A stretch of DNA of 64,000 nucleotides from Candidatus Latescibacterota bacterium (lineage in GTDB: Bacteria; Krumholzibacteriota; Krumholzibacteriia; WVZY01; JAKEHA01), in contig OY970173.1 in NCBI GenBank assembly GCA_963707635.1, positions 2,080,001 through 2,144,000 on the forward strand. The letters are read 5' to 3'. This document shows positions 2,383 to 39,467 of this stretch, in pieces. The translations under genes were made by a program, and so were the position numbers. Position 1 is the first letter of the stretch. Each line of letters starts with the position of its first letter. A model generated the notes under the pieces. That model was not told where the DNA came from. It did no database searches and saw nothing but the letters and a program-made list of their open reading frames with translations.

Positions 2383-3775
2383 CCACCCGCTCCCCCGTCC
2401 CCGGTTCCTGAACAGGACCTTTTTCCGCCGCAAGAAGCTCCAGCAACACCGGTCGCAGATTGTGTAGCGGCGATTCGATGACGTGTTCGAGCAGCCGCTC
2501 GAGCGCGCGTCCAACGGCGGGGCCCGGCCCGATACCCAGCACGCGCATCACGTCCCCGCCGTCGACCTCGAGGTCGGCGACCCGCAGCGCGGCCCGCTCC
2601 CGCCGCTCGTAGGCCACCCGCTTCCGCAGGGCGTCGAGTTGCCCCAGCTCTCCGGCCATCCCGTCGACGTGCAGGCGAGCGCGGCAGTCGGCTTCGCGCA
2701 GCCGGAAAAGATCGTCCAGCAGGTCGGAACCGACCGTGCGCATGAATCGCCTCACCGTGGCCGCGCGCCATTCCGGCGCGTACCGATACATGTGGTGCCG
2801 CACCAGGCGCCGGCAGCAGGCGACGAACGACGTCGGATAGCGTAACCGCCCCAGGACCGCTTCGGTGATGTCGGCACTCACCAGCTCGTGGCCGTAGAAG
2901 ACGACGCGGGACCCGCGCTCGTCGGTGACCGATTGTCGCGCGTCCACCTTGCCGGTGTCGTGCAGGAGCGCCGCCCACCGCACGAGCAGGTTCTCGCGCG
3001 GCGCCGCGTCGCAGGTCTTTAGCGAGTGCCAGTAGACGTCGTCGGGATGATACTCGTTCTGGGTGACGCCCGCACACCGGGCGAGTTCGGGAAGCATCAC
3101 CGCCAGAGCGCCGGTCTGGTAGAGCAGGTGCCACGCGGCGCCGGGACGGTCGCACTGGGTCATGGTCTTGGTGCACTCGTCGCGAATCCGCTCGGCACTG
3201 ACGGTCGCGACGAGGGCGGCCGATTCTCGCATCCGCGCGCGTGTTTCCGCATCCACCTCGAGGTCGAATCGCGCGGTGAAGCGTGCGCCGCGCAGAATTC
3301 GCAGCGGATCCTCCACGAACGCGCGCTCGAAGATGGTGCGCAGCCGGCGGCGCACGAGATCGCCGGCGCCGCCGAAGGGGTCGACCCGATGTCCGTCCGG
3401 GACGCGCTCCGCGATGGCGTTGATGGTGAAGTCCCGGCGGCGAAGATCGTCTTCCACCGGCAGCCGCCAGTCCCACCGCACGTCGAAGTCACGGTGCCCC
3501 GGTCCCGTCGACGTCTCGGTGCGCGGGAAGACTATATCGTAGGTGACGCCGTCGTCCGCCGCCGTGAACTTGTAGACGCCGAACGCCTTGCCGACCAGCG
3601 CCACGGCACCGTGGCGCGCGAGGATGCCTTCCAGCACCTCAGGCGGCAGCCCGCGCACGAGCAGGTCGGTGTCGGGCAGCCCCGACAACCCGAGCAACCG
3701 GTCGCGCACCGCGCCACCCACCCGGTACAGCTCTCCGCGCGCGAGGATTTCGGACTGCCAGGCCGGGAGGTTCAC
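2378..3775 (-). CDS. cca: CCA tRNA nucleotidyltransferase / poly(A) polymerase family with HD domain
   Basis: VGGAVRD, DTDLLV, DLRRRDFTINA, EDPLRILR and LLHDTGK motifs. GTG start overlaps the upstream stop (GTGA). Confidence 0.9.
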   Translation of the reverse strand: MNLPAWQSEILARGELYRVGGAVRDRLLGLSGLPDTDLLVRGLPPEVLEGILARHGAVALVGKAFGVYKFTAADDGVTYDIVFPRTETSTGPGHRDFDVRWDWRLPVEDDLRRRDFTINAIAERVPDGHRVDPFGGAGDLVRRRLRTIFERAFVEDPLRILRGARFTARFDLEVDAETRARMRESAALVATVSAERIRDECTKTMTQCDRPGAAWHLLYQTGALAVMLPELARCAGVTQNEYHPDDVYWHSLKTCDAAPRENLLVRWAALLHDTGKVDARQSVTDERGSRVVFYGHELVSADITEAVLGRLRYPTSFVACCRRLVRHHMYRYAPEWRAATVRRFMRTVGSDLLDDLFRLREADCRARLHVDGMAGELGQLDALRKRVAYERRERAALRVADLEVDGGDVMRVLGIGPGPAVGRALERLLEHVIESPLHNLRPVLLELLAAEKGPVQEPGTGERVE

Positions 3776-4746
3776 GGCTGCCCGTCGCGCGGCCAGCGCA
3801 CCGGGTGGCGCACCCAGAGTGCCAGACCCGCCAGCGCGGTCAGGTATGTACCGATCAGCACGTAGACGATCGAAAACCCGACCGCTTCGGCGCTGCCGAC
3901 GCCGACCACGGAGAAGAAGTAGATGACGGTCGCGTCTCGCGTCCCCAGCCCCGAAATCGAGAACGGGATCAATTCGACCAGTGTGACGATGGGCATCATC
4001 AACACGATGTAGGCCGGTGACACCGGGATCGAGAGGAGAAGCGATACGTAGACCGCCAGCGCAAAGATGAGCGCCCAGCACACGAGCGTCATCGCGGCCA
4101 TCACGGCGATGCGGCGGCGCGACGCGCCATAGACGCGGAGTGCGTCGTAGAAGGAATGAAAGCCGGTCGACCACCGGTCGCGATGGCGGGCCGGTACCAG
4201 AACCGAAAAGGCGGGTTTCAAGAGCGCCCGCATCCACCGCCGGTTGGTGGCCATGACCGCGGCGGCGGCGATGGCGGCCGCCCCGAGCGCGAACAGCGGC
4301 GCCGACGGAATCTGGATGTACCGCTGCGAGAATATCAGGGTGGTCGCGACCCCGCCGACCAGGATGAAGCCGAGGTCCCAGAGGCGGTCGACGAAGACCG
4401 TGAGGAGTGTTTCCCCCAGCGGACGACCGGTGTCCGTGCGGAGATAGAGCGCGCGAAGGGCGTCGCCGGCCTTGCCCGGGGTCACCGACGACGCGAAGAA
4501 GCCGATCATCCACACCGACGTGCTGCGCCGCAGCCCGTATTCCATGCCCAGGGAGCGGATGACGTAGCGCCAGCGCGCCCCGCGCGCGACGGAAATGGCG
4601 GCGATGATGAGCGGCGCCCACAGGAGCTGGACCGGCTCGATCCCGCGCAGGATCCCGATGATCCGGGCGGGGCCGGTGCGCGCGACGATGGCGGCGAATA
4701 TCGCCAGGCCGACGAGCGGCATCAGGATCGCAAGCGCGCGCTTCAT
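3772..4746 (-). CDS. Lysylphosphatidylglycerol synthase TM-domain / flippase-like membrane protein
   Basis: Multi-TM; RWRY, TPGKAGDALRA, DRLWD and PFSISGLGTRD motifs typical of the LPG_synthase_TM family. Confidence 0.8.
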   Translation of the reverse strand: MKRALAILMPLVGLAIFAAIVARTGPARIIGILRGIEPVQLLWAPLIIAAISVARGARWRYVIRSLGMEYGLRRSTSVWMIGFFASSVTPGKAGDALRALYLRTDTGRPLGETLLTVFVDRLWDLGFILVGGVATTLIFSQRYIQIPSAPLFALGAAAIAAAAVMATNRRWMRALLKPAFSVLVPARHRDRWSTGFHSFYDALRVYGASRRRIAVMAAMTLVCWALIFALAVYVSLLLSIPVSPAYIVLMMPIVTLVELIPFSISGLGTRDATVIYFFSVVGVGSAEAVGFSIVYVLIGTYLTALAGLALWVRHPVRWPRDGQP

Positions 4747-4803: not shown

Positions 4804-4832
4804 TTGATTTCGCCGCCCAACCCCCCTATAAT
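4804..4832 (+). promoter_or_regulatory. sigma70 promoter of the sat/cysC operon
   Basis: TTGATT-N17-TATAAT; AGGAG RBS at 4852-4856 before GTG 4864. Confidence 0.7.
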
Positions 4833-4863
4833 ACTCCAATCATAGCCCCTTAGGAGTCCATTT

Positions 4864-5082
4864 GTGAAGCACGACAAGGTCACGATCAAGATCCCCCGGC
4901 CCCTGTACAATCGAGTCCAGCAGCTCATCGACGACTCCGGATTCAATTCTCCGACCGACTTCATTGTATACGTGCTGCGCGACGTGTTGAGCGAGCGAGG
5001 CCTCGACCACGGGGACACGTTCACGCCGGAAGAGCTCGCCGCCATCAAGCAGAAGCTCCGGCGACTCGGATATCTCGACTAG
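4864..5082 (+). CDS. Small ribbon-helix-helix (CopG-like) protein with C-terminal LGY motif
   Basis: KVTIKIPRPLYNRVQQLI...FNSPTDFIVYVLRD RHH pattern; tail EELAAIKQKLRRLGYLD; good RBS. Confidence 0.8.
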   Translation: MKHDKVTIKIPRPLYNRVQQLIDDSGFNSPTDFIVYVLRDVLSERGLDHGDTFTPEELAAIKQKLRRLGYLD

Positions 5083-5106
5083 ACCCTCGGCGAGGAGGAC
5101 GTTCAC

Positions 5107-6267
5107 ATGATTGCACCACATGGCGGGACGCTGGTCTCGCGGATCGTTCCCGCGCGCGAACGAGACCCGCTGCGCGACCACGCCAGCACCCTGCCCGTCA
5201 TCGACCTCAACGCGCGCGAGTCGTCCGACCTGCTCTTGATCGCGATCGGCGGCATGAGTCCACTCGAGGGTTTCATGGGGCGGGCGGACTACGAGCACGT
5301 GCTCACCGACATGCGCCTCGCCTCCGGAATTCCGTGGTCGCTTCCGGTCACACTCTCGGTCGAGTCCGACACGATGCGCGGGCGCCGCACGCCCTTCGTC
5401 GCGTCCCTGCGCACTCCGGAGGGCAAGATCGTGGGCTTGATGACGGTGGACGAGCTCTTCGCCCCCGACAAGACGCGGGAGGCGGAACGAGCGCTGGGCA
5501 CGGCGGACCCCAGGCATCCCGGCGTGCAGTACCTCGACACGACCGGCGACCTGTACGCCGGCGGGAAGGTGTGGCTGCTCGAGCGCGTCAAGGACGGGCC
5601 GTTTGCCGCTCATGAGAGCGACCCGGCCGAGACACGTGCGCTCTTCGCCGAAAAGAAATGGGAGCGGGTGTGCGCGTTCCAGACCCGCAATCCGATCCAT
5701 CGCGCGCACGAGTATCTGATCAAGTGCGCGCTCGAAACCGTGGACGGGTTTCTGATCCACCCGGCGATGGGTGAAACCAAGTCCGACGACGTTCCGGCGG
5801 TGGTGCGGATGGAATGCTATCTCGCGCTGACGCGGAACTACTTCCCCGGTAGCCACGTCGCCCTGACGGTGTTTCCCTACGCGATGCGCTACGCGGGACC
5901 GCGCGAAGCGATCCTGCACGCGATCATTCGCAAGAACTACGGCTGCACGCATTTCATCGTGGGCCGCGACCACGCCGGCGTAGGCAACTATTACGGCACC
6001 TACGACGCCCAGCGCATCTTCGCGCAGTTCACCCCCGACGAGCTTGCGATCACGCCCGTGTTCTTCGAGCACTCGTTCTTCTGCACGCGTTGCGGCGGCA
6101 TGGCGTCGGAGAAGACGTGCCCGCACGGGGCGGAGAGCCGGGTGGCCTTGAGCGGCACCCGGGTGCGCGAGCTGCTCGCGAGCGGCGCGCCGCTGCCGGA
6201 CGAGTTCACCCGGCGCGAAGTGGCCGAGATCCTGCAGCGCCATTACGCCGGCGCGAAGGCGGGCTAG
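5107..6267 (+). CDS. sat: Sulfate adenylyltransferase (ATP sulfurylase)
   Basis: APHGG N-terminus, SPLEGFM, FQTRNPIHRAHE, YAGPREA, GRDHAGVG and Zn site CTRC...CPH. Confidence 0.97.
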   Translation: MIAPHGGTLVSRIVPARERDPLRDHASTLPVIDLNARESSDLLLIAIGGMSPLEGFMGRADYEHVLTDMRLASGIPWSLPVTLSVESDTMRGRRTPFVASLRTPEGKIVGLMTVDELFAPDKTREAERALGTADPRHPGVQYLDTTGDLYAGGKVWLLERVKDGPFAAHESDPAETRALFAEKKWERVCAFQTRNPIHRAHEYLIKCALETVDGFLIHPAMGETKSDDVPAVVRMECYLALTRNYFPGSHVALTVFPYAMRYAGPREAILHAIIRKNYGCTHFIVGRDHAGVGNYYGTYDAQRIFAQFTPDELAITPVFFEHSFFCTRCGGMASEKTCPHGAESRVALSGTRVRELLASGAPLPDEFTRREVAEILQRHYAGAKAG

Positions 6268-6270
6268 CCC

Positions 6271-7650
6271 GTGTCGCGACGCCTGCTCGTCATCGGCCTG
6301 GATTGCGTCACACCTGAATTGTTCTTCGGGCCGTGGTTGGAGGAAATGCCGAACCTGCGCCGGCTGATCCAGAACGGAATCCAGGCGCGTTTGGTCTCGA
6401 CGGTCCCGCCCATCACGGTCCCCGCCTGGATGGCCATGATGACCTCCCACGACCCGGGCATGCTGGGCATTTACGGCTTTCGCAATCGCGCGCGACACGA
6501 CTACGAAGACACCTACACCGTCAACGCCACCCACGTGCAGGCCCGCACGGTGTGGAACATCCTTTCCAGAAACCGGCTGCGATCGATCGTCATGGGAGTT
6601 CCGCTGACGTACCCGCCCAAGCCGCTCAACGGCTTGATGGTCGGGTGTTTCCTGACCCCGGACTCCGCCGCCGAGTTCACCTATCCCCCGGAGCTCAAGC
6701 GGCGGCTCAACACGCTGGCGGGCGGCGAGTACATCATCGACGTGAAGGATTTTCGCAACGAGCGCAAGCAGGAGACACTCGAGCAGATCGAACGCATGAC
6801 CGAACGGCGGTTTCGAGCGTTCCGCGGCCTGCTCGCGGGCGAAGAGTGGGATTTCGCGATGATGGTCGAGATGGGACCGGACCGGCTGCACCACGCTTTC
6901 TGGCGCTACTCCGATTCGGGACACCGGCTGTACGAAAAGGGCAACCCGTTCGAGGACGTCATCCACCGGTACTACCTCGAGATGGACGCCGAAATCGGCC
7001 GCACCGTCGACGCGGTGCCCGCGGACACATCGGTGATCGTCGTTTCGGACCACGGCGCCCGGCGCATGGCCGGCGCGATCTGCGTCAACGAGTTCCTGAT
7101 TCGCGAGGGCTACCTGACGCTCAAGTCGTACCCGGACCACCCGACGCGGCTCACCCCGGATCTGGTGGACTGGGATCGTACGTTGGCGTGGGGCGACGGC
7201 GGTTACTACGCGCGCGTGTTTCTCAACGTGGCCGGGCGCGAGCCCCGCGGGCAGGTGGCCCCCGACGACGCCGCGCGCGTCGGCCGCGAACTCGCGGCCA
7301 AGCTGGAGGCGCTCGGCGACGAGAACGGGCGCCCGATCGGGACGCGCGTATTCTTTCCCGGGGAGATCTATCGCGAAACGCGTGGGGTGCCGCCCGACCT
7401 GATCGTGTATCTTGGCGACCTCGAGTGGCGCAGCGCCGGAACCGTCGGACACGGCCGCGTGCACGTCTTCGAGAACGACACCGGGCCGGACGACGCGAAC
7501 CACGCCCAGGAAGGCGTCTTCGTGTGGGCGAACCGGGGCAAGGCGCCCGCGGGTCCGGTCGCGCGGGTGTCGATCTACGACGTGGCGCCCTCGATACTCG
7601 ACTACTTTTCGATACCGGCTCCGCCGGAGATGATCGGGCACGTGATTTAG
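6271..7650 (+). CDS. Alkaline phosphatase superfamily (nucleotide pyrophosphatase/phosphodiesterase-like) protein 1, cytoplasmic
   Basis: IGLD, STVPPITVPAW (Thr nucleophile position), DRLHH, SDHG and DDANH; no signal peptide. Confidence 0.88.
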   Translation: MSRRLLVIGLDCVTPELFFGPWLEEMPNLRRLIQNGIQARLVSTVPPITVPAWMAMMTSHDPGMLGIYGFRNRARHDYEDTYTVNATHVQARTVWNILSRNRLRSIVMGVPLTYPPKPLNGLMVGCFLTPDSAAEFTYPPELKRRLNTLAGGEYIIDVKDFRNERKQETLEQIERMTERRFRAFRGLLAGEEWDFAMMVEMGPDRLHHAFWRYSDSGHRLYEKGNPFEDVIHRYYLEMDAEIGRTVDAVPADTSVIVVSDHGARRMAGAICVNEFLIREGYLTLKSYPDHPTRLTPDLVDWDRTLAWGDGGYYARVFLNVAGREPRGQVAPDDAARVGRELAAKLEALGDENGRPIGTRVFFPGEIYRETRGVPPDLIVYLGDLEWRSAGTVGHGRVHVFENDTGPDDANHAQEGVFVWANRGKAPAGPVARVSIYDVAPSILDYFSIPAPPEMIGHVI

Positions 7651-7725
7651 CGCAACGTGCTGCGGGCGAGCCGAACGGCGGCCACCCCGCGTCGTGCCAA
7701 ACCGTAATGCTTCAACGGAGGATCT

Positions 7726-8325
7726 ATGAAAGGCTTCACGCTGTGGTTCACCGGGCTACCCTCGTCGGGCAAGTCGACGCTGGCTCGTCGCGTGGAGGAG
7801 ATCCTCCTCGAGCGCGGGATGAACGTCGAGGTCCTGGACGGGGATGAAGTCCGCGAAAACTTGAGCAAGGGGCTCGGGTTCTCGAAGGAGGACCGCGACA
7901 CCAACATCCGGCGCATTGGCTTCGTCGCCAAGCTGCTCGCGCGCAACGGCGTGGTCGCCATCACGGCGGCGATTTCGCCCTACCGCGACGTGCGCGATGA
8001 AATGCGGCGCGCGATCGGACGCTTCGTCGAGGTGTACGTCGAGTGCCCCATCGACGTGCTCAAGGAACGAGACGTCAAGGGCCTGTACAAGAAGGCGCTG
8101 GCCGGCGAGATCAAGCATTTCACCGGCGTGGACGATCCCTACGAGCCGCCGCTCAAACCCGAAGTGGTCGTGCACAGCGACCGCGAGGGCGTGGACGAGA
8201 GCGTGGCCCGGATCGTGGGAACGCTCGAAGTGCTCGGGTACATCCCGCGGGCGTCCGGGGGCGACTTCTCCGCCGCCGAAGAGGAAACCATCAAACGCCG
8301 GCTTAAGGATCTCGGCTACATCTGA
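7726..8325 (+). CDS. cysC: Adenylyl-sulfate (APS) kinase with C-terminal LGY extension
   Basis: [39 protein letters not shown] and FTGVDDPYE; tail [15 protein letters not shown]. Confidence 0.96.
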
Positions 8326-8330
8326 CCCCC

Positions 8331-9657
8331 ATGCTCAAGTGGTTTCAGCAACCGGCGGAGCGGGCCTGCGTCGTCGGACTCGACGGCGTTCCCTGCTCGA
8401 TGATCCGGCGCTTCACGCAATCCGGCGTCATGCCCCGCATGGCGGAAATCGTGGCCCGGGGCGCCCTGCGCGAAACCACCGTGTCGCTGCCCGAGATCTC
8501 TTCCGTCAGCTGGTCGTCGTTCATGACCGGCAAGAACCCGGGTGAGCACGGCATCTTCGGATTCACCGATTTGCACCCGGGGACCTACACGCAGAGCTTC
8601 CCGAGTTTTCGCGACCTCAAGTGCGACACCATCTGGGACCGCCTCGGCGAGCGCAAGATGCGCAGCGTCGTGATCAACCAGCCCGCGACCTATCCGGCGC
8701 GGCCGATCCACGGCGTGCTGGTGTCGGGCTTCGTCGCGGTTCACCTCGACCGCTCCGTGTTTCCCGCGCGCTATCTGCGCCTGCTGCGCGACATCAACTA
8801 CGAGATCGACCTCGACGCAGAGGTCGTGCGCGACAACCCGACGGCCCTGTTCCGCAAGCTGCACGAGTTGCTCATCGCGCGCGAGCGGTTGCTGGACGCG
8901 CTGTGGACGGAAGAGAAATGGAACCTGATGCAGGTGGTGGTCACCGGAACCGACCGCCTGCACCACTTCCTCTTCGACGCATACGACGACGCGGCCCACC
9001 CGGAGCACCAGGGTTTTCTCGACTACTATCGAGCGGTGGACGCGTTCGTCGGGCGCGTTTACGACCGCTTTGCCGCCTCCGGCGACGGGCGAAACTTCTT
9101 CGTCCTTTCCGACCACGGGTTTTGCCGCACGAGCCACGAGGTGAACGTCAACGCCGTCCTGGAGCAGAACGGGCTGCTCGCCTTCGCGACGGCCGACGCG
9201 ACCGGGCTGGACGGAATCTCCGAGCGCGCGGCGGCGTTCGCGCTGGACCCCGCGCGCCTCTATGTCCACCGCCGCGGCCGCTTCCCCCGCGGTGGGGTGG
9301 CCGAGGATCGCGTCGAGGGCGTCCTCGACGAGCTCACGGCCCTGTTCACGTCGCTGCGCGCACGAGGGAGAGCCGGTCGTGCGCCGGATCTTTCGCGGGC
9401 GCGATGTGTACCATGGCAGTGAAGCGGCCCGCGGTCCGGACCTGTTGCTCGTTCCCGTCAACGGGTTCGACCTGAAGGGGCGCGTGCGCGCGCGCGAGGT
9501 GGTGGCTCCCCGCCGTCTCCAGGGCATGCACACCTGGGACGACGCGTTCGTGGCCACGCTGCGCACGGACCTCGTCCCCCAGGGCCGCGAGCTGACGCTG
9601 CTGGACGTGCCGCGGATGATTCTCAAGAGCCTCCATGTCGAACCGATGGATTCGTAG
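8331..9657 (+). CDS. AlkP/NPP-like protein 2, cytoplasmic; single frameshift near 9360 (sequencing error or pseudogene)
   Basis: GLDGVP, VSLPEISSVSW, DRLHH and SDHG in frame 8331. The family-like C-terminus (EPVVRRIFRGRDVYHG..GPDLL..QGMHTWDDAF) continues in ORF 9262..9657. Confidence 0.82.
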
Positions 9658-11689
9658 CATCGCCGTCGTGACGCTGGCGCTGTGGCCGACCGCGGCGTTC
9701 GCCTACATCGGGCCCGGCGCCGGCTTCGCGCTGGTGTCGTCGTTCGTGACGCTGGTGGTGGCGTTCGGGGCCGCGTTCTTTGCGGTGTTCGCGCTGCCGG
9801 TGCGCGTGCTCGTGCGGCAGTGGAAGCGGCGCCGCTCACTCCGGCACGCGCGCGTGAAGAAGGTGATCGTGCTCGGCCTGGACGGGCTCGACCCCGACAT
9901 CTGCGAGGCACTGTTCGCGCGCGGGGACCTTCCCCACCTGCGCAAACTCCGCGACGAAGGGACCTACCGCCGGCTGGGCACGTCGATGCCCGCCCTCTCG
10001 CCGGTCGCGTGGTCGACCTTCGCCACCGGCGCCGACCCGTCGCGACACGGAATATTCGACTTCGTGGCGCGCGATCCCCGCACCTACGCCCCGCACCTTT
10101 CGTCGAGCGAAGTGTACGGACGCACCCGTTTCATCGGCGTCGGACGGCTCCGGTTCCCGGTTTCGAGCGGCGGCGTGCGCGGATTCCGGCGCAGCCGGAC
10201 GTTCTGGCGGGTGCTTTCCGACCACGGCGTGGCCTCCTCCGTCCTGCGGGTTCCGATCACATTTCCGGTCGAGAAGATCGACGGTGTGATGATCGCCGGC
10301 ATGTGCGTGCCGGATCTGCGCGGCACCCAGGGATCGTTCACGTTCATCACCAGCGACTCCGAGTCGCCCCCGCGCGGCGGGGTCGTGATCGACGTGCCCG
10401 CGTCGGGAGGTGCCGTCGTCATCCCCGGCCCCGCGAGCCCGATCGACGGCAAGCCGATTTCGGTGCGTGTCGAGATCCGTCGCACACGCGACGCCGGCCA
10501 CGAGCTCGTCGTGGGGCGGGAGCGCGTGGCGCTGCGCGAGCGGGAATACACGCCCTGGGTGAGACTCGCCTTTCGCGCCGCGCGCGGGCTGACCGCCAGC
10601 GGCATCGCGCGCTTCTATCCCGTGCGCCTGGCCGACGGCCTCGCCATCTACGTGACGCCGATTCACGTCGACCCGGAGCACCCGGCGATTCCGATCTCGC
10701 ATCCGTCGGTGTTTTCAGTCTACCTGGCGAAGCTCATGGGGCCGTTCGGGACCCTCGGGCTGGCGGAGGACACCAGCGCGCTCAACGACGGAGCCATCGA
10801 CGAGCAGGCCTTTCTCGACCAGGCCTACGACCTGCACGCGGAGCGACGCGCCATGTGGGAGCACGCGCTGGCGCGGCTGCGCGGCGGCCTGGCGGTGTGC
10901 GTGTTCGATATCAGCGATCGCCTCCAGCACATGTTCTTTCGCTATCGCGACCCGGCCCATCCAGCCAACGCGGGCCGCGACGTGACGCGCCACGCGGACG
11001 CGATTCACGAGATGTACCGGCGCATGGACACCCTGGTCGGTGAGACGATCGCGCGGGTGGATCGCCACACGGCGCTGTTCGTGATGTCGGACCACGGCTT
11101 CAAGCAGTTCCGCCGCGGCGTCAACCTCAACGGGTGGCTCGCGCGCGCCGGGCTGCTCGCGGTCAAGGAAGGCGCCGGACCCGGCGAGTACCTGAGCGCA
11201 ATCGACTGGAGCCGGACCCGGGCGTACGCGCTGGGGTTGAGCGGCATCTACCTGAACCTGCGCGGCCGCGAGCGGGACGGCATCGTAGACGCCGCCGACG
11301 CGGACGGCCTGAAGCAAACTATCATTCGCGGGCTCACCGCGCTGCGCGATGGCGACGGTCCCGTCATCCGCCGGGTCGTCGACGTGGCGCGCGACCTCGA
11401 CGGTCCCTATCGCGATGGCGGGCCCGACCTGCTGCCGGGCTACGAGGACGGTTACCGCGTGTCGTGGGACTGCGCCAAGGGATCGGTGCGCGACGAGTTG
11501 TTCGAAGACAACACGAAGTGCTGGAGCGGCGATCATTGCGTGGACTCCGACATCGTCCCCGGCGTCCTGTTCACGAACGTCGCGCTGGACGAGGGGCCGA
11601 TCGGGCTGGAAGACGTCGGCCCGACCATTCTGGATCTCTTCGGCGTGCCGGTTCCTTCCTATATGACCGGACGGAGCCGGGCGAAATGA
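9635..11689 (+). CDS. AlkP/NPP-like protein 3 with signal peptide, YIGPG motif and TM anchor
   Basis: N-terminus ...TAAFA-YIGPGAG, then a hydrophobic helix and RQWKRRR; followed by GLDGLD, TSMPALSPVAW, DRLQH, SDHG and SGDH. Confidence 0.87.
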   Translation: MSNRWIRSIAVVTLALWPTAAFAYIGPGAGFALVSSFVTLVVAFGAAFFAVFALPVRVLVRQWKRRRSLRHARVKKVIVLGLDGLDPDICEALFARGDLPHLRKLRDEGTYRRLGTSMPALSPVAWSTFATGADPSRHGIFDFVARDPRTYAPHLSSSEVYGRTRFIGVGRLRFPVSSGGVRGFRRSRTFWRVLSDHGVASSVLRVPITFPVEKIDGVMIAGMCVPDLRGTQGSFTFITSDSESPPRGGVVIDVPASGGAVVIPGPASPIDGKPISVRVEIRRTRDAGHELVVGRERVALREREYTPWVRLAFRAARGLTASGIARFYPVRLADGLAIYVTPIHVDPEHPAIPISHPSVFSVYLAKLMGPFGTLGLAEDTSALNDGAIDEQAFLDQAYDLHAERRAMWEHALARLRGGLAVCVFDISDRLQHMFFRYRDPAHPANAGRDVTRHADAIHEMYRRMDTLVGETIARVDRHTALFVMSDHGFKQFRRGVNLNGWLARAGLLAVKEGAGPGEYLSAIDWSRTRAYALGLSGIYLNLRGRERDGIVDAADADGLKQTIIRGLTALRDGDGPVIRRVVDVARDLDGPYRDGGPDLLPGYEDGYRVSWDCAKGSVRDELFEDNTKCWSGDHCVDSDIVPGVLFTNVALDEGPIGLEDVGPTILDLFGVPVPSYMTGRSRAK

Positions 11690-13626
11690 AGGGTCTCATC
11701 GGCGCGCTGCTGGTCGCGATGCTGGCGACGCCGGCCGCCGCGGCCGGCGAGCATCCCTCGGTGGTCGTGCTCGGCATCGACGGCATGGACCCCGATCTGC
11801 TGACAAGATTCATGTCCGAAGGGCGCATGCCGAATTTTTCCGCGTTGATCGCGGAGGGATCGTTCACGCGACTGGAGACGTCGATTCCCCCGCAGAGCCC
11901 GGTCGCGTGGTCGAACTTCATCACCGGCATGGACCCGGGCGGCCACGGCATCTTCGACTTCATCCACCGCGACCCCGCCACTTATACCCCGGTGTTTTCC
12001 GCCGCCGACATCGAGGAGCCGTCGAAGACTCTCTCACTCGGCGACTGGCTGCTCCCCTTGTCGGGGGGCGGCACGGTGCTGCTGCGCAAGGGCGAGGCGT
12101 TCTGGCAGGTGCTGGACCGCGCGGGAATTCCGTGCACGGTAATCCGCGTGCCGGCCAACTATCCACCTGCGAAGACGTCGGCGCGCACGCTCTCGGGGAT
12201 GGGCACACCGGACCTGCTCGGGAGCTACGGCACCTTTACGCTCTACACCGACGACGACATATGGCGCGGCGCCCACGTGAGCGGCGGGCGCGTGGTGATG
12301 GTCGACCGGGTGGACGACCGGGCGCGAATTCAGATCGAGGGGCCGAAGAACTCGTTGCGCAAGAGCCAGCCGACGCTGGCGCGGGAAGCCGTGGTCGACG
12401 TCGACCCCGAGCACGATGCGGCCCGGATCGCGGTCGGTGGCGAGGAGATCGTGCTCCACGCCGCAGAGTGGAGCGGCTGGGTCCCCATCGACTTCGACGT
12501 GCTCGGGCCGGTGAAGAAGCTCCGCGGCATGTGTCGATTCTATTTGAAGAGCGTGCGCCCGTCACTCCAGCTCTACGTGTCGCCTCTGAACCTAGACCCG
12601 CTGCACCCGGCGCTTCCCATCTCCACACCCGAAGACTATTGCGCCGACCTGGCGCGGCGGGTCGGGCGCTACTACACGCAGGGGATCGCGGAAGACACCA
12701 AGGCGCTCGAAGCGGGCGCGCTGAACGACGCGGAGTTCGTGGAGCTGACCGATACGCTGCTCTCGGAGCGCGAGCGCATGCTCGACGCGGTCCTCTCGGA
12801 TTATCGCGACGGCTTCTTGTTCTTCTACGTGTCGACCATCGACCAGTCGTGCCACGCCCTGTGGCGCAATGCGGACGCGGCGCACCCCGCCCACCCGGCG
12901 GACGGCGCGTTCGCGGACCGCTTCGCGACCCTCTACGCAGAAATGGATCGCGTGCTGGGAACGATTCGCGCGCGTATTCCCCGCGACGCCACCATGATCG
13001 TCATGTCCGACCACGGCTTTGCGCCCTACTACCAGAAGGTGCACTTGAACACCTGGCTGTACCGCAACGGGTACCTCGCCCTCGTGCGTGCGGACGAACC
13101 CGGGGGCCCGCTGTTCGGCAACGTGTTTTGGCGCCGCACGCGGGCCTACGCGGCGGGCCTCAACGGGCTCTACCTGAACGTGGCCGGCCGGGAGGCGCGC
13201 GGGATCGTCGCGCGCGGCGCGGAATACGACGATCTCCTGGCCGAGATCGCGACGAAGCTGCTCGAGTTTCGCGACCCCGAAAACGGCGAACGGGTGGTGA
13301 CGACCGTCTATCGGGCCCGCGACGTCTACCACGGATCGGAGGTGGGTGCGGCTCCCGACCTGATCGTGGGGTACAATCGTGGGTACCGGTCGAGCGACGA
13401 TTCGGCGCTGGGGACGGTCACCTCGGAGCTGCTGACCCCCAACCTCGGCAAATGGACCGGCGACCATTGCATGGACCATCACCTCGTGCCCGGAATCCTG
13501 GTGTGCAACCGGCCGCTGCGCGCGGGCGACCCGCGGCTGATCGACCTGCCCGTCACGATCCTGGCGCTGTTCGGCGTGGACGCGCCGGCCGCGATGACGG
13601 GCCGGGCGCTGATCGACACCCCCTGA
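11686..13626 (+). CDS. AlkP/NPP-like protein 4, exported (Sec signal peptide)
   Basis: ATGA overlap with the previous gene; MKGLIGALLVAMLATPAAAA signal; GIDGMD, TSIPPQSPVAW, DQSCH, SDHG and TGDH; paralog of protein 3. Confidence 0.87.
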   Translation: MKGLIGALLVAMLATPAAAAGEHPSVVVLGIDGMDPDLLTRFMSEGRMPNFSALIAEGSFTRLETSIPPQSPVAWSNFITGMDPGGHGIFDFIHRDPATYTPVFSAADIEEPSKTLSLGDWLLPLSGGGTVLLRKGEAFWQVLDRAGIPCTVIRVPANYPPAKTSARTLSGMGTPDLLGSYGTFTLYTDDDIWRGAHVSGGRVVMVDRVDDRARIQIEGPKNSLRKSQPTLAREAVVDVDPEHDAARIAVGGEEIVLHAAEWSGWVPIDFDVLGPVKKLRGMCRFYLKSVRPSLQLYVSPLNLDPLHPALPISTPEDYCADLARRVGRYYTQGIAEDTKALEAGALNDAEFVELTDTLLSERERMLDAVLSDYRDGFLFFYVSTIDQSCHALWRNADAAHPAHPADGAFADRFATLYAEMDRVLGTIRARIPRDATMIVMSDHGFAPYYQKVHLNTWLYRNGYLALVRADEPGGPLFGNVFWRRTRAYAAGLNGLYLNVAGREARGIVARGAEYDDLLAEIATKLLEFRDPENGERVVTTVYRARDVYHGSEVGAAPDLIVGYNRGYRSSDDSALGTVTSELLTPNLGKWTGDHCMDHHLVPGILVCNRPLRAGDPRLIDLPVTILALFGVDAPAAMTGRALIDTP

Positions 13627-13646
13627 CGGAATCAAAGGAGACACCC

Positions 13647-13838
13647 ATGTTCGGAAAGAATCGAGTTACCCTCGAAAAGGATCTGTTCGAGCGCGTGCGC
13701 GCGGCCTCGGAGAAGGCAGGGTACGCGTCGGCCGACGAGTTCGTCGCCCACGTGCTCGAACGCGAGCTCGCGAAAACGGAAGCGGGGTCGAGCGGCGACG
13801 TGAAGAAGCAGCTCGAGGGCCTCGGCTACATTTCCTGA
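13647..13838 (+). CDS. Second small RHH-like protein with C-terminal LGY motif
   Basis: AAGGAG RBS; MFGKNRVTLEKDLFERVRAASEKAGYASADEFVAHVLERE...DVKKQLEGLGYIS, resembling the 4864 protein. Confidence 0.8.
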   Translation: MFGKNRVTLEKDLFERVRAASEKAGYASADEFVAHVLERELAKTEAGSSGDVKKQLEGLGYIS

Positions 13839-13839
13839 C

Positions 13840-14661
13840 GTGTTCCTGCTCGCGCGCATCGTGACCCTCGTCTTCGACGCGCTGGTGGCGCCGTTCGGCT
13901 CCCATCGGCTCGCCGCGCTGCTGGCGGTTTCCCTGCTGGGCGGGGCAATGCTCGCGCTGGTTTTTCGCGCGACCTCGAAGCAGGCCGCCATCGGCCGTTC
14001 GCGCGAGCGGTTCAAGGCGCGGATACTCGAGATGCGTCTCTACCCGGACGACATCGTCCTGATCACGCGCGCGTTCGGGGGCGCACTCGCCGCGCAGGGT
14101 GCGTATCTCAAGTACGCCGCGCCCGGGATCCTGGCAGCGGTCGTGCTCGCCGCCCCGCTGTTCGTACAACTCGAGCAGCGCTTCGCCTCCCGCGCGCTCC
14201 CGCCCGGGAGCCGCACGCTGGTCACGGCGACGCTGGCGGAGGGCACCGACCCGCGCGCGGTCGTCACCTCGCTTTCCGGACCCGCCGGGACCGAGGTGGA
14301 CGCACGCTCGCTGCGCGCGAGGGCATCGCGCGACGTCGTGTGGGTCGTGGATGTCCGGGAGCGCGGCCGCCACGAGATGGAGCTCACGCTGGGAGCGCAG
14401 GCGTATCGATTCCCCATCGAGGCGAAGGAATCGTGCCGCGCGATCGGTCGACGACGAAGCGCGGGTTCCTGGGTCGACGCGGGGACGCAGGTCGGGCTGC
14501 CCGGGATCGCGGCGGGGGGCCCCATAGCAGGGGTTCGCATCCATTACCCGGCCGCGCACTATCGACTGCTGGGGATCGGGATGAACTGGCTGGCTGTATT
14601 CCTGATCGGGACTCTGGTGGGCGCGGTCCTGCCGGCGCGGCTGTTGAGAATCCACCTCTAG
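13840..14661 (+). CDS. Membrane protein, DUF106/EMC3/TMCO1-like topology with soluble insertion
   Basis: TM, basic helical segment (KQAAIGRSRERFKARILEMRL), TM, beta-rich insertion, then C-terminal TM WLAVFLIGTL..ARLL. Family assignment by eye only. Confidence 0.6.
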   Translation: MFLLARIVTLVFDALVAPFGSHRLAALLAVSLLGGAMLALVFRATSKQAAIGRSRERFKARILEMRLYPDDIVLITRAFGGALAAQGAYLKYAAPGILAAVVLAAPLFVQLEQRFASRALPPGSRTLVTATLAEGTDPRAVVTSLSGPAGTEVDARSLRARASRDVVWVVDVRERGRHEMELTLGAQAYRFPIEAKESCRAIGRRRSAGSWVDAGTQVGLPGIAAGGPIAGVRIHYPAAHYRLLGIGMNWLAVFLIGTLVGAVLPARLLRIHL

Positions 14662-14678: not shown

Positions 14679-14771
14679 TGGTGCCGGAGGCCGGAGTCGA
14701 ACCGGCACGGGGCTTTCAAAGGCCCCAGCGGATTTTAAGTCCGCTGCGTCTACCAATTCCGCCACTCCGGC
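14679..14771 (-). tRNA. tRNA-Leu (TAA)
   Basis: GCCGGAGTGGCGGAATTGGTAGACGCAGCGGAC-TTAAAA-TCCGCT, long variable arm, GGTTCGACTCC, encoded CCA. Confidence 0.96.
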
Positions 14772-39283: not shown

Positions 39284-39358
39284 TGGAGGCGGCACCCGGA
39301 TTCGAACCGGGGATAACGGTTTTGCAGACCGTCGCCTTAGCCACTTGGCTATGCCGCC
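39284..39358 (-). tRNA. tRNA-Cys (GCA)
   Basis: GGCGGCATAGCCAAGTGGCTAAGGCGACGGTCTGCAAAACCGT...GGTTCGAATCC...CCA. Confidence 0.97.
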
Positions 39359-39392: not shown

Positions 39393-39467
39393 TGGAGCGG
39401 GAAACGGGATTCGAACCCGCGACATCCACCTTGGCAAGGTGGAGCTCTACCACTGAGCTATTCCCGC
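39393..39467 (-). tRNA. tRNA-Gly (GCC)
   Basis: GCGGGAATAGCTCAGTGGTAGAGCTCCACCTTGCCAAGGTGG...GGTTCGAATCC...CCA. Confidence 0.97.

Follow-up and report, generated by a model that had tools for sequence, protein, structure and literature searches.

A nine-gene operon in the 64,000-nucleotide stretch of contig OY970173.1 analysed here (the window; Candidatus Latescibacterota, with close homologues named Candidatus Krumholzibacteria) encodes three proteins that end in the same short tag, L-x-x-L-G-Y-[IL]. Our results indicate that this LGY tag is, with high probability, a real and portable element that docks on enzymes of the alkaline phosphatase superfamily (AlkP); the best reading of its function, to which we give about an even chance, is that of a docking arm whose tyrosine carries sulfate. 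The genes follow each other on the forward strand in the order RHH-1, sat, AlkP1, cysC, AlkP2, AlkP3, AlkP4, RHH-2 and a membrane protein gene, with a flippase-like gene in divergent orientation. An earlier sequence-only reading of this DNA had stated that RHH-1, CysC and RHH-2 end in the tag, and all three ends were confirmed: EELAAIKQKLRRLGYLD closes the ribbon-helix-helix (RHH) protein RHH-1 (tag at 5029..5079, Tyr70 codon at 5071-5073), a second copy closes the adenosine 5′-phosphosulfate (APS) kinase CysC (8278..8322) and DVKKQLEGLGYIS closes RHH-2 (13797..13835, with Tyr61). The same reading counted three AlkP enzymes; the operon holds four AlkP genes, none of them tagged.

The presence of the tag on three operon proteins is far beyond chance. 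LxxLGY occurs at a rate of 8.8e-6 per residue inside the six-frame open reading frames (ORFs) of this genome, six terminal copies were seen versus 0.94 expected over 26,680 ORF ends, and the chance of three terminal tags among the nine operon genes is about 4e-12. A profile of the tag end gave seven strong matches genome-wide, homologues of four of which were in its training set, and none of the seven is more than one residue away from a stop. They are the three operon tags, three AlkP/sulfatase-fold enzymes and one DUF2061 protein. Four ORFs outside the operon end in the tag; the three enzymes have N-terminal hydrophobic or lipoprotein-like signals, and the DUF2061 protein is a small membrane protein (L001:7905-8201; G000:C1:569857-570201) that in this genome has no linkage to sulfate genes. 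In two further AlkP enzymes the tag immediately precedes an extension that, as read from sequence, is of tetratricopeptide repeat (TPR) type. A near-identical tandem AlkP pair (L005:6597-11131; G000:C1:2930597-2935131) differs only in the TPR-like part after the internal tag, and it adjoins a family 2 glycosyltransferase.

It could be argued that LxxLGY is simply a common amphipathic helix cap, of independent origins and with no shared function, since a similar helix end occurs in the core of CysC itself (LEVLGYI, residues 167-173, 8224..8244) and, as a weak match (E 1.4), in the solved APS kinase 7yq0. The figures above, together with the class-specific distribution of the tag and the controlled docking prediction described below, largely refute this view. 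The helix in the CysC core is variable, and might possibly have been the source of the tag.

Conservation of the tyrosine among homologues had been named beforehand as a check that could overturn the proposal, and the residue is kept in 120/120 RHH-1 and 95/95 RHH-2 homologues; a single one of the 120 has the first Leu of the tag changed. Related loci were fetched with a pattern of the RHH core that made no use of the tail, keeping the best 80 of 376, and among loci picked by RHH core or by neighbourhood the tail is present in 80/80 RHH-1 and 36/36 complete RHH-2 proteins. CysC serves as its own control, because its core look-alike varies (Gly in 10/21 and Tyr in 13/21, with Phe, Leu, Asn and His also occurring) while its appended tag is invariant (Gly and Tyr each 21/21). 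The tag comes besides in flavours, such as KLxGLGYIS, that are specific to, and conserved within, each carrier.

Two other sets carry less weight, being biased by queries that contained the tyrosine: homologues of the enzyme AlkPx (120/120) and 150 representative RHH matches. The latter comprise 141 proteins with a C-terminal LGY, five with LGY or IGY followed by extensions, two tail-less or frameshifted, one with LGP and one with LGF, this last in an apparent chimera. Likewise, GY is invariant by construction in our alignment A10, which was made from tagged rows. Two proteins, P0364 and P0336, have two RHH-tag stretches per chain, the former consisting of two RHH domains with an LGY tag after each.

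Beyond the operon, the tag marks a class of sulfatase-fold enzymes. Selection of sulfatase-domain (PF00884) proteins in five genomes, with the domain score as sole criterion, gave 122 matches; 90 loci or regions were retrieved for these, and the analysis covered 103 distinct ORFs. The tag ends, or precedes a further domain in, 85 of the 87 complete proteins with a Thr/Ser nucleophile, the exceptions being one variant IDSGY and one tail-less protein, and is found in none of nine Cys-type sulfatases; two other Thr/Ser proteins were cut by the locus end, and five, two of them tagged, were unalignable at the nucleophile. No Phe, Trp or His was found in place of the tag Tyr among these PF00884-selected proteins. 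The tagged class has a Thr/Ser nucleophile without the signature Arg and a median pairwise identity of 32%. In the genome of the window the tag is present in 2/2 Thr-type and 0/4 Cys-type proteins, and one divergent membrane-anchored protein is untagged. Formylglycine-dependent S1 sulfatases belong to the same superfamily and also contain PF00884, and need the signature C/S-x-P-x-R (PMC5066984); the nine Cys-type members examined here are the untagged ones. The tag is thus a sequence marker that separates from true formylglycine sulfatases a large class annotated as sulfatases, with up to about 40 sulfatase-domain matches per genome, mostly of the Thr/Ser class among those examined. SulfAtlas treats Thr-bearing PF00884 proteins as uncharacterised and holds that they should not be called sulfatases (PMC5066984).

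The tag also ties this class to Agl30 (VNG1056C) and Agl31 (VNG1057C) of Halobacterium salinarum, a pair of AlkP-fold enzymes with demonstrated sulfate transfer: deletion and heterologous expression identified them as N-glycan sulfotransferases (PMC11980604). Translation of the cloning primers given in that paper shows that Agl30 ends in HLEDLGYL and Agl31 in LEELGYT. Both resemble the operon set in the AlkP/sulfatase fold, which they use for sulfate transfer, and in the LxxLGY end, a likeness of fold and tail, and differ from it in having the tag in cis, with neither trans-acting tags nor a membrane cassette. An AlkP fold ending in LxxLGY is seen in Agl30/Agl31 and in exported enzymes of this genome; AlkP1-4 have no such end in cis. 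The available text of the paper discusses no mechanism, donor or tail, and the word tyrosine does not occur in it (PMC11980604). An upstream hydrophobic stretch was detected, by a crude test, in 83/89 Thr/Ser enzymes, most of which would therefore have no access to 3′-phosphoadenosine 5′-phosphosulfate (PAPS). Cis-tagged AlkP1-like genes in two loci, L100 and L101, directly follow O-antigen-ligase-like and MurJ-like genes, which hints at a polysaccharide acceptor.

The four operon enzymes have kept their catalytic apparatus. AlkP1 (6271..7650) is a cytoplasmic enzyme of nucleotide pyrophosphatase/phosphodiesterase (NPP) type with Thr49 as nucleophile and a complete set of two-metal ligands; AlkP2 (8331..9657) is likewise cytoplasmic, with a Ser nucleophile; AlkP3 (9635..11689; Ser122) has a signal peptide, one membrane segment, a basic stretch and a predicted cytoplasmic AlkP domain; and AlkP4 (11686..13626; Ser71), its predicted exported sister, matches AlkP3 in profile comparison with 36% identity. 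All four match PF01663 above the curated cut-off (111-152 bits versus 23) and retain the two-metal ligand motifs and the Thr/Ser nucleophile, the last His of AlkP2 lying beyond a break in its frame; the seven metal and nucleophile positions of AlkP3 are invariant in 37/37 homologues. Where the formylglycine signature would stand they read PPITVPAW, PEISSVSW, PALSPVAW and PPQSPVAW. The break in AlkP2 is due to one extra base near 9356 (9346-9365), as judged against four homologues and one low-depth public contig, and is either an assembly error or a recent frameshift.

What these enzymes lack in cis is found in trans on their neighbours. Operon-type enzymes are tail-less almost throughout, with a tag in AlkP1 0/28, AlkP2 0/21, AlkP3 0/45 and AlkP4 1/43, and AlkPs related to them carry it in cis. 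CysC (7726..8325; PF01583 and PRK00889 both over the cut-off) consists of the APS kinase, a linker and the appended tag, and is tagged in 24 of 62 loci; AlkP1 is present in all 24 of these (AlkP2 in 23) and in none of the other 38. Similarly, among 61 genomes of the phylum, tagged CysC occurs in the nine with an AlkP1 orthologue. The untagged CysC of family f6 adjoins rmlA/rmlC and rpsO-pnp.

RHH-2 (13647..13838), a 63-residue RHH-like protein with an LGYIS tail, has AlkP3 as a neighbour in 37/37 loci, and AlkP4 and the membrane gene in 36 each. It is present in 29 of the 61 genomes, each time beside AlkP3/AlkP4 matches (only one of the two is visible in genome G026, at a contig break), and this cassette occurs also in genomes whose sat and cysC are located apart from it. 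In 4/9 loci the cassette is followed by an exported AlkP with a cis tag. A cultured Planctomycete, Rohdeia mirabilis (L081), has the cassette as well. Across the 61 genomes the Thr/Ser class and an AlkP3/4-type gene are both found in 35, one only in two and neither in 24; of the 36 class-positive genomes, 34 have a match among those listed that reaches the tag. These traits are shared by kin, yet G031 alone has both among the 11 genomes of its family.

Other carriers of the tag are one CysD and 40 lipoprotein-like proteins in Planctomycete-type loci, which would place tags on both sides of the membrane. The latter are helical proteins of about 165 residues with no Pfam family, encoded divergently from RHH-1 (L033-L085, e.g. 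L049:9203-9697), and are candidate periplasmic carriers. In the operons of Planctomycetes a very conserved, tail-less 318-residue sulfatase-like protein with the motif YASWTAPSH (L057:11548-12504 and relatives) replaces AlkP1; the L075 version continues into a fused C-terminal part that bears a cis tag. The tagged CysD, ending in QKLRSLGYM, lies beside a tail-less cytoplasmic AlkP3/4-like gene (L095:5412-9351) in a genome where no APS kinase was found.

The exchange of the tag between cis and trans suggests a physical encounter with the AlkP domain, and a complex prediction is consistent with one. With the RHH-2 tail (residues 33-63) and the AlkP3 catalytic domain (68-684), modelled without metals, the complex score was 0.71, versus 0.01 for the best of three controls; the mark for this score is reached by 116/157 solved complexes and 2/215 mismatched pairs, rates that are only rough with custom alignments. 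The runs share at least 78% of their contacts, with a pLDDT of at least 54 for the partner. The predicted interface on RHH-2 is exactly the tag, residues 52-63, and on AlkP3 it includes Phe143, Trp630, the loop 229-234, Leu121, which adjoins Ser122, and Cys635, which adjoins the metal ligand His634. Conservation at these AlkP3 positions exceeds the mean of the domain (0.82 versus 0.65; permutation p 0.0003), in part because the interface borders the active site. AlkP4 retains much of the AlkP3 docking groove. Neither a close AlkP1 relative nor a protein with a resolved cis tail was identified among solved structures, so there is no obvious solved pair that the prediction could have reproduced, although this falls short of proof. 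The portable docking on AlkP enzymes proposed by the sequence-only reading is thus borne out by the invariant tyrosine, by cis/trans complementation and by this controlled prediction. In the complex prediction that it had called for, the tail is predicted to dock at the active-site cleft of AlkP3; the contact list does not place Tyr61 against Ser122.

How the docked tyrosine would act is a matter of weighing. In the carrier reading, a cytoplasmic AlkP would take the sulfuryl group from PAPS through its Thr/Ser nucleophile and pass it to the tail tyrosine as an aryl sulfate. PAPS would be supplied by the operon itself, whose Sat, an untagged ATP sulfurylase (5107..6267), and CysC are by sequence intact genes for PAPS synthesis. 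A PAPS/APS reductase was not found in this genome, which is 96% complete. CysC was found in 29/29 cassette genomes. We also considered, and rejected, a classical P-loop sulfotransferase as a required loader of the tag: PF13469 was not found in 12 of the 29 cassette genomes, and the single such enzyme of the genome in hand is untagged. The idea of a Tyr-O-sulfate carrier, already put forward from the sequence, is kept as the best reading, on evidence that is indirect. If correct, it would answer how bacteria and archaea sulfate envelope polymers without access to PAPS, and would provide a mechanism for Agl30 and Agl31.

The same tail could instead complete the active site non-covalently, as a lid or docking helix that shields the sulfo-enzyme from water, with the Tyr hydroxyl in a fixed hydrogen bond and nothing carried; most enzymes would have it in cis, and the operon would supply it in trans, tethering CysC, with channelling of PAPS, and the RHH proteins to the enzymes. 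We consider this possible but somewhat unlikely. It explains the invariance of the tyrosine, the link to the class and the docking as well as the carrier does, and the carrier-specific flavours of the tag are what partner-specific docking would give. A structural aromatic position, however, usually accepts Phe, as the CysC core look-alike does, and none occurs in tags collected independently of the motif. The cis tail, moreover, is poorly ordered in a monomer model: in the AlphaFold2 model of a cis-tagged AlkP of this genome the tag ends a long helix along which confidence falls from 95 to 55 (including 88, 71 and 55), as for a mobile arm. Finally, a lid leaves the exported enzymes without a sulfate donor, and does not account for the cassette of AlkP3, AlkP4 and membrane protein or for an invariant tyrosine, Tyr24, in AlkP3 (37/37; see below). 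Even as a lid or docking arm, the tag would be a module exchangeable between cis and trans, of which we found no description in the literature searched.

Several observations weigh against a sulfate-carrying tyrosine, and some of them favour the lid. The listed contacts of Tyr61 are the hydrophobic Leu535 and Ala614, and neither Ser122 nor any metal ligand appears among the contacts predicted with confidence. Agl30 and Agl31 are active in a foreign host with C-terminal StrepII-His tags, and Agl31 is cytoplasmic, where a carrier is unneeded (PMC11980604). If, as is possible, all of the Thr/Ser class belongs to one clade, the tag counts are not independent and reflect deep retention rather than 85 separate events. 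The gain and loss of the CysC tag amounts to about two changes on a quick CysC tree (61 rows, the motif filter having removed two tagged ones), and for this reason the link between CysC tag and AlkP1 is suggestive only; independent co-evolution of this tag with AlkP1/AlkP2 was accordingly discarded as weak. Two genomes, G041 and G057 (95% and 93% complete), have 17 and six class matches, and the search for Sat, CysD and APS kinase found none of the three in them. The carrier model, besides, has no explanation for the route of sulfate from a cytoplasmic tail across the membrane.

The genomes lacking sulfate-activation genes, and G031, in which CysD is present and no APS kinase was found, could be taken to mean that the tail covalently carries another group, such as an adenylyl or other phosphoryl group from APS, PAPS or another nucleotide. 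NPP-type enzymes attack phosphorus, and NPP phosphodiesterases are the closest solved folds. We deem such a carrier very unlikely, as Agl30 and Agl31 add sulfate (PMC11980604), CysC is encoded in the operon and in every cassette genome, and the missing genes may reflect incomplete assemblies.

For the membrane-crossing step, the cassette offers a tentative route within the sulfate-carrier reading. The N-terminus of AlkP3 (9635-9820) contains a signal peptide, the motif A|Y[IV]GPG in 37/37 homologues, one hydrophobic segment and a basic stretch, and AlkP4 has a signal peptide only. Tyr24 (9704-9706), directly after the predicted cleavage site, is invariant, and the motif is the sole one of its kind in this genome; it is a candidate second carrier tyrosine. 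From hydropathy and the positive-inside rule, AlkP3 is predicted to expose this N-terminal Tyr outside and to keep its enzyme domain inside. The last operon gene (13840..14661) encodes a membrane protein with an inserted Ig-like domain that likely belongs to the Oxa1 superfamily (YidC/EMC3/TMCO1/DUF106). This assignment is based on a profile match (E 3.4e-6) to MJ0480 (5c8j), which we take to be an Oxa1-superfamily member, with both parts of the core aligned (transmembrane segment TM1, coiled coil and TM2; TM3), and on fold matches to the multipass-translocon chain 7tut_8 (Z 10.8, rmsd 3.8, 135 aligned) and YidC 3wo7 (Z 7.5, rmsd 6.6, 151 aligned), values of Z that alone are middling for helical folds. 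Foldseek gave no match at E 0.001, and PF01956 was found in 0/34 members at E 0.01, with 17% of a related Atlas cluster carrying it.

On these grounds, AlkP1 and AlkP2 would serve, with the tails of RHH-1 and CysC, a soluble branch, and AlkP3, RHH-2, the Oxa1-like protein and exported AlkP4 a branch moving sulfate across the membrane, with Tyr24 as a likely relay point on the outer side. Exported Thr/Ser enzymes would then have their cis tails charged by AlkP4, and would in turn transfer sulfate to glycans, lipids or proteins of the envelope. Such a protein-borne aryl-sulfate relay, from PAPS through Tyr-O-sulfate tails and AlkP3/RHH-2/Oxa1-like/AlkP4 across the inner membrane to dozens of exported cell-envelope sulfotransferases per genome, each with a built-in LGY arm, is a speculative proposal that we rate as possible rather than probable. 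Genome distribution limits it in two respects. AlkP1 is absent from 20 cassette genomes, which indicates that AlkP1/AlkP2 are not obligatory loaders, an idea we rejected for RHH-2 as unsupported, and AlkP3 itself may use PAPS there. Also, RHH-2 is missing from six genomes of one family, whose only AlkP3/4-like enzyme is exported and of a different build, with an internal hydrophobic hairpin; the RHH-2 relay is therefore not the sole route. Such a single exported enzyme, with the hairpin placed beside the loop where the tag is predicted to dock and with no RHH-2, is seen in L091, L093, L094, L096, L097 and L099; no sulfate-activation genes were found in two of the genomes of this set.

The sequence-only reading had further proposed that the apparent CopG regulators are carrier proteins, which fits RHH-2 and only in part RHH-1. 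A match to the NikR N-domain (E 0.0046) points to a possible RHH fold; the RHH_1 profile is weak, below the cut-off, in 7/29 RHH-2 members, and Atlas neighbours are named CopG family (0.94-0.95). RHH-1 (4864..5082), at the operon head, has the conserved beta-strand TIKIP and is a likely autorepressor. A sigma70-type promoter, TTGATT-17-TATAAT (4804-4832), is overlapped by an array with an operator-like ACTCCAATC site and a second GGAGT half-site (4804..4860 in all). The operator-like motif is enriched upstream of RHH-1 homologues (179 versus 62 in shuffled sequence, 79 loci); it was first chosen by eye from the same data, and unsupervised 6-mers agree. Upstream of RHH-2 the count of this RHH-1 motif was 38 versus 29 shuffled (35 loci); RHH-2 may bind at other sites. 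Genome-wide the 10-base pattern has 18 matches, of which only this promoter and one near C1:638414 are at tagged genes. Together, these features suggest that RHH-1 is likely the repressor of the operon, and its tail would couple expression to the state of the pathway. RHH-2 is better read as a dimeric scaffold for its tail than as a regulator, because of its position in the middle of the cassette and the lack of upstream motif enrichment.

The array at the RHH-1 promoter might suggest that on the RHH proteins the tag is a regulatory device, through which the enzymes sequester or modify a repressor so that transcription tracks the state of enzyme or PAPS, off the path of sulfate flux. In the same vein, AlkP1 is found in about 35 of the 80 RHH-1 loci; its absence from the rest fits as well. 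This reading is, however, unlikely: RHH-2 is the third gene of its cassette, and the tag is also carried by the non-regulators CysC, DUF2061, CysD and the 40 exported lipoprotein-like proteins of Planctomycetes.

Short tyrosine tails with a carrier role have a precedent in DltX, of teichoic acid D-alanylation, and in the C-terminal hexapeptide of PatA, the tyrosine acyl shuttles of MBOAT-SGNH systems (PMC12148441). They share with the LGY tail a short near-terminal motif, an invariant Tyr and its occurrence either fused to an enzyme or on a separate small protein, and they work by ping-pong between Ser-nucleophile enzymes across a membrane, as in the proposed relay (PMC12148441). They differ in motif (FXYXXF versus LxxLGY[IL]), in acyl chemistry and in being displayed on a membrane helix, extracytoplasmically (PMC12148441). 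RHH-1, CysC and RHH-2 have no hydrophobic segment, which departs from a DltX-like display outside; the cis tails of exported enzymes and lipoproteins would lie there, given their carriers. Among the operon proteins scanned against Pfam and NCBIfam, no MBOAT or SGNH partner was found. The DltX analogy drawn previously is therefore retained as a logic, with a Tyr near the C-terminus, and dropped for motif, partners and location. If true, the relay would be the sulfate counterpart of this acyl shuttle, built from unrelated folds and a repurposed insertase.

The chemistry required has a parallel in aryl sulfotransferases, which have a different fold and a His nucleophile. PAPS-independent members use aryl sulfates as sulfuryl donors (PMC13426309); this is the donor chemistry of a sulfated Tyr tail, with small-molecule donors in place of a protein arm. 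Among gene clusters, the copG-sat-pApase-type I phosphodiesterase-cysC cluster of Pyrococcus yayanosii likewise joins an RHH gene, Sat, an AlkP and CysC, and its authors identified no sulfotransferase (PMC8268124). It lacks the AlkP3/AlkP4/RHH-2/Oxa1-like module, was read as assimilatory with the AlkP as a pyrophosphatase, and no tag is described for it in the available text (PMC8268124). In a search that reached little subscription literature, we found no paper describing the LxxLGY motif, whether under several spellings of it or by way of AlkP sulfotransferases with periplasmic PAPS, extracytoplasmic sulfation or Thr-type sulfatases as sulfotransferases.

The operon is bordered upstream by the divergent flippase-like LPG_synthase_TM gene (3772..4746, reverse strand), which adjoins RHH-1 in 25 of the 80 related loci and is a possible link to a lipid or glycan acceptor. 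Directly after the operon lies a tRNA-Leu(TAA) gene (14679-14771, reverse strand), and the window further contains tRNA-Cys (39284-39358) and tRNA-Gly (39393-39467) genes, both on the reverse strand.

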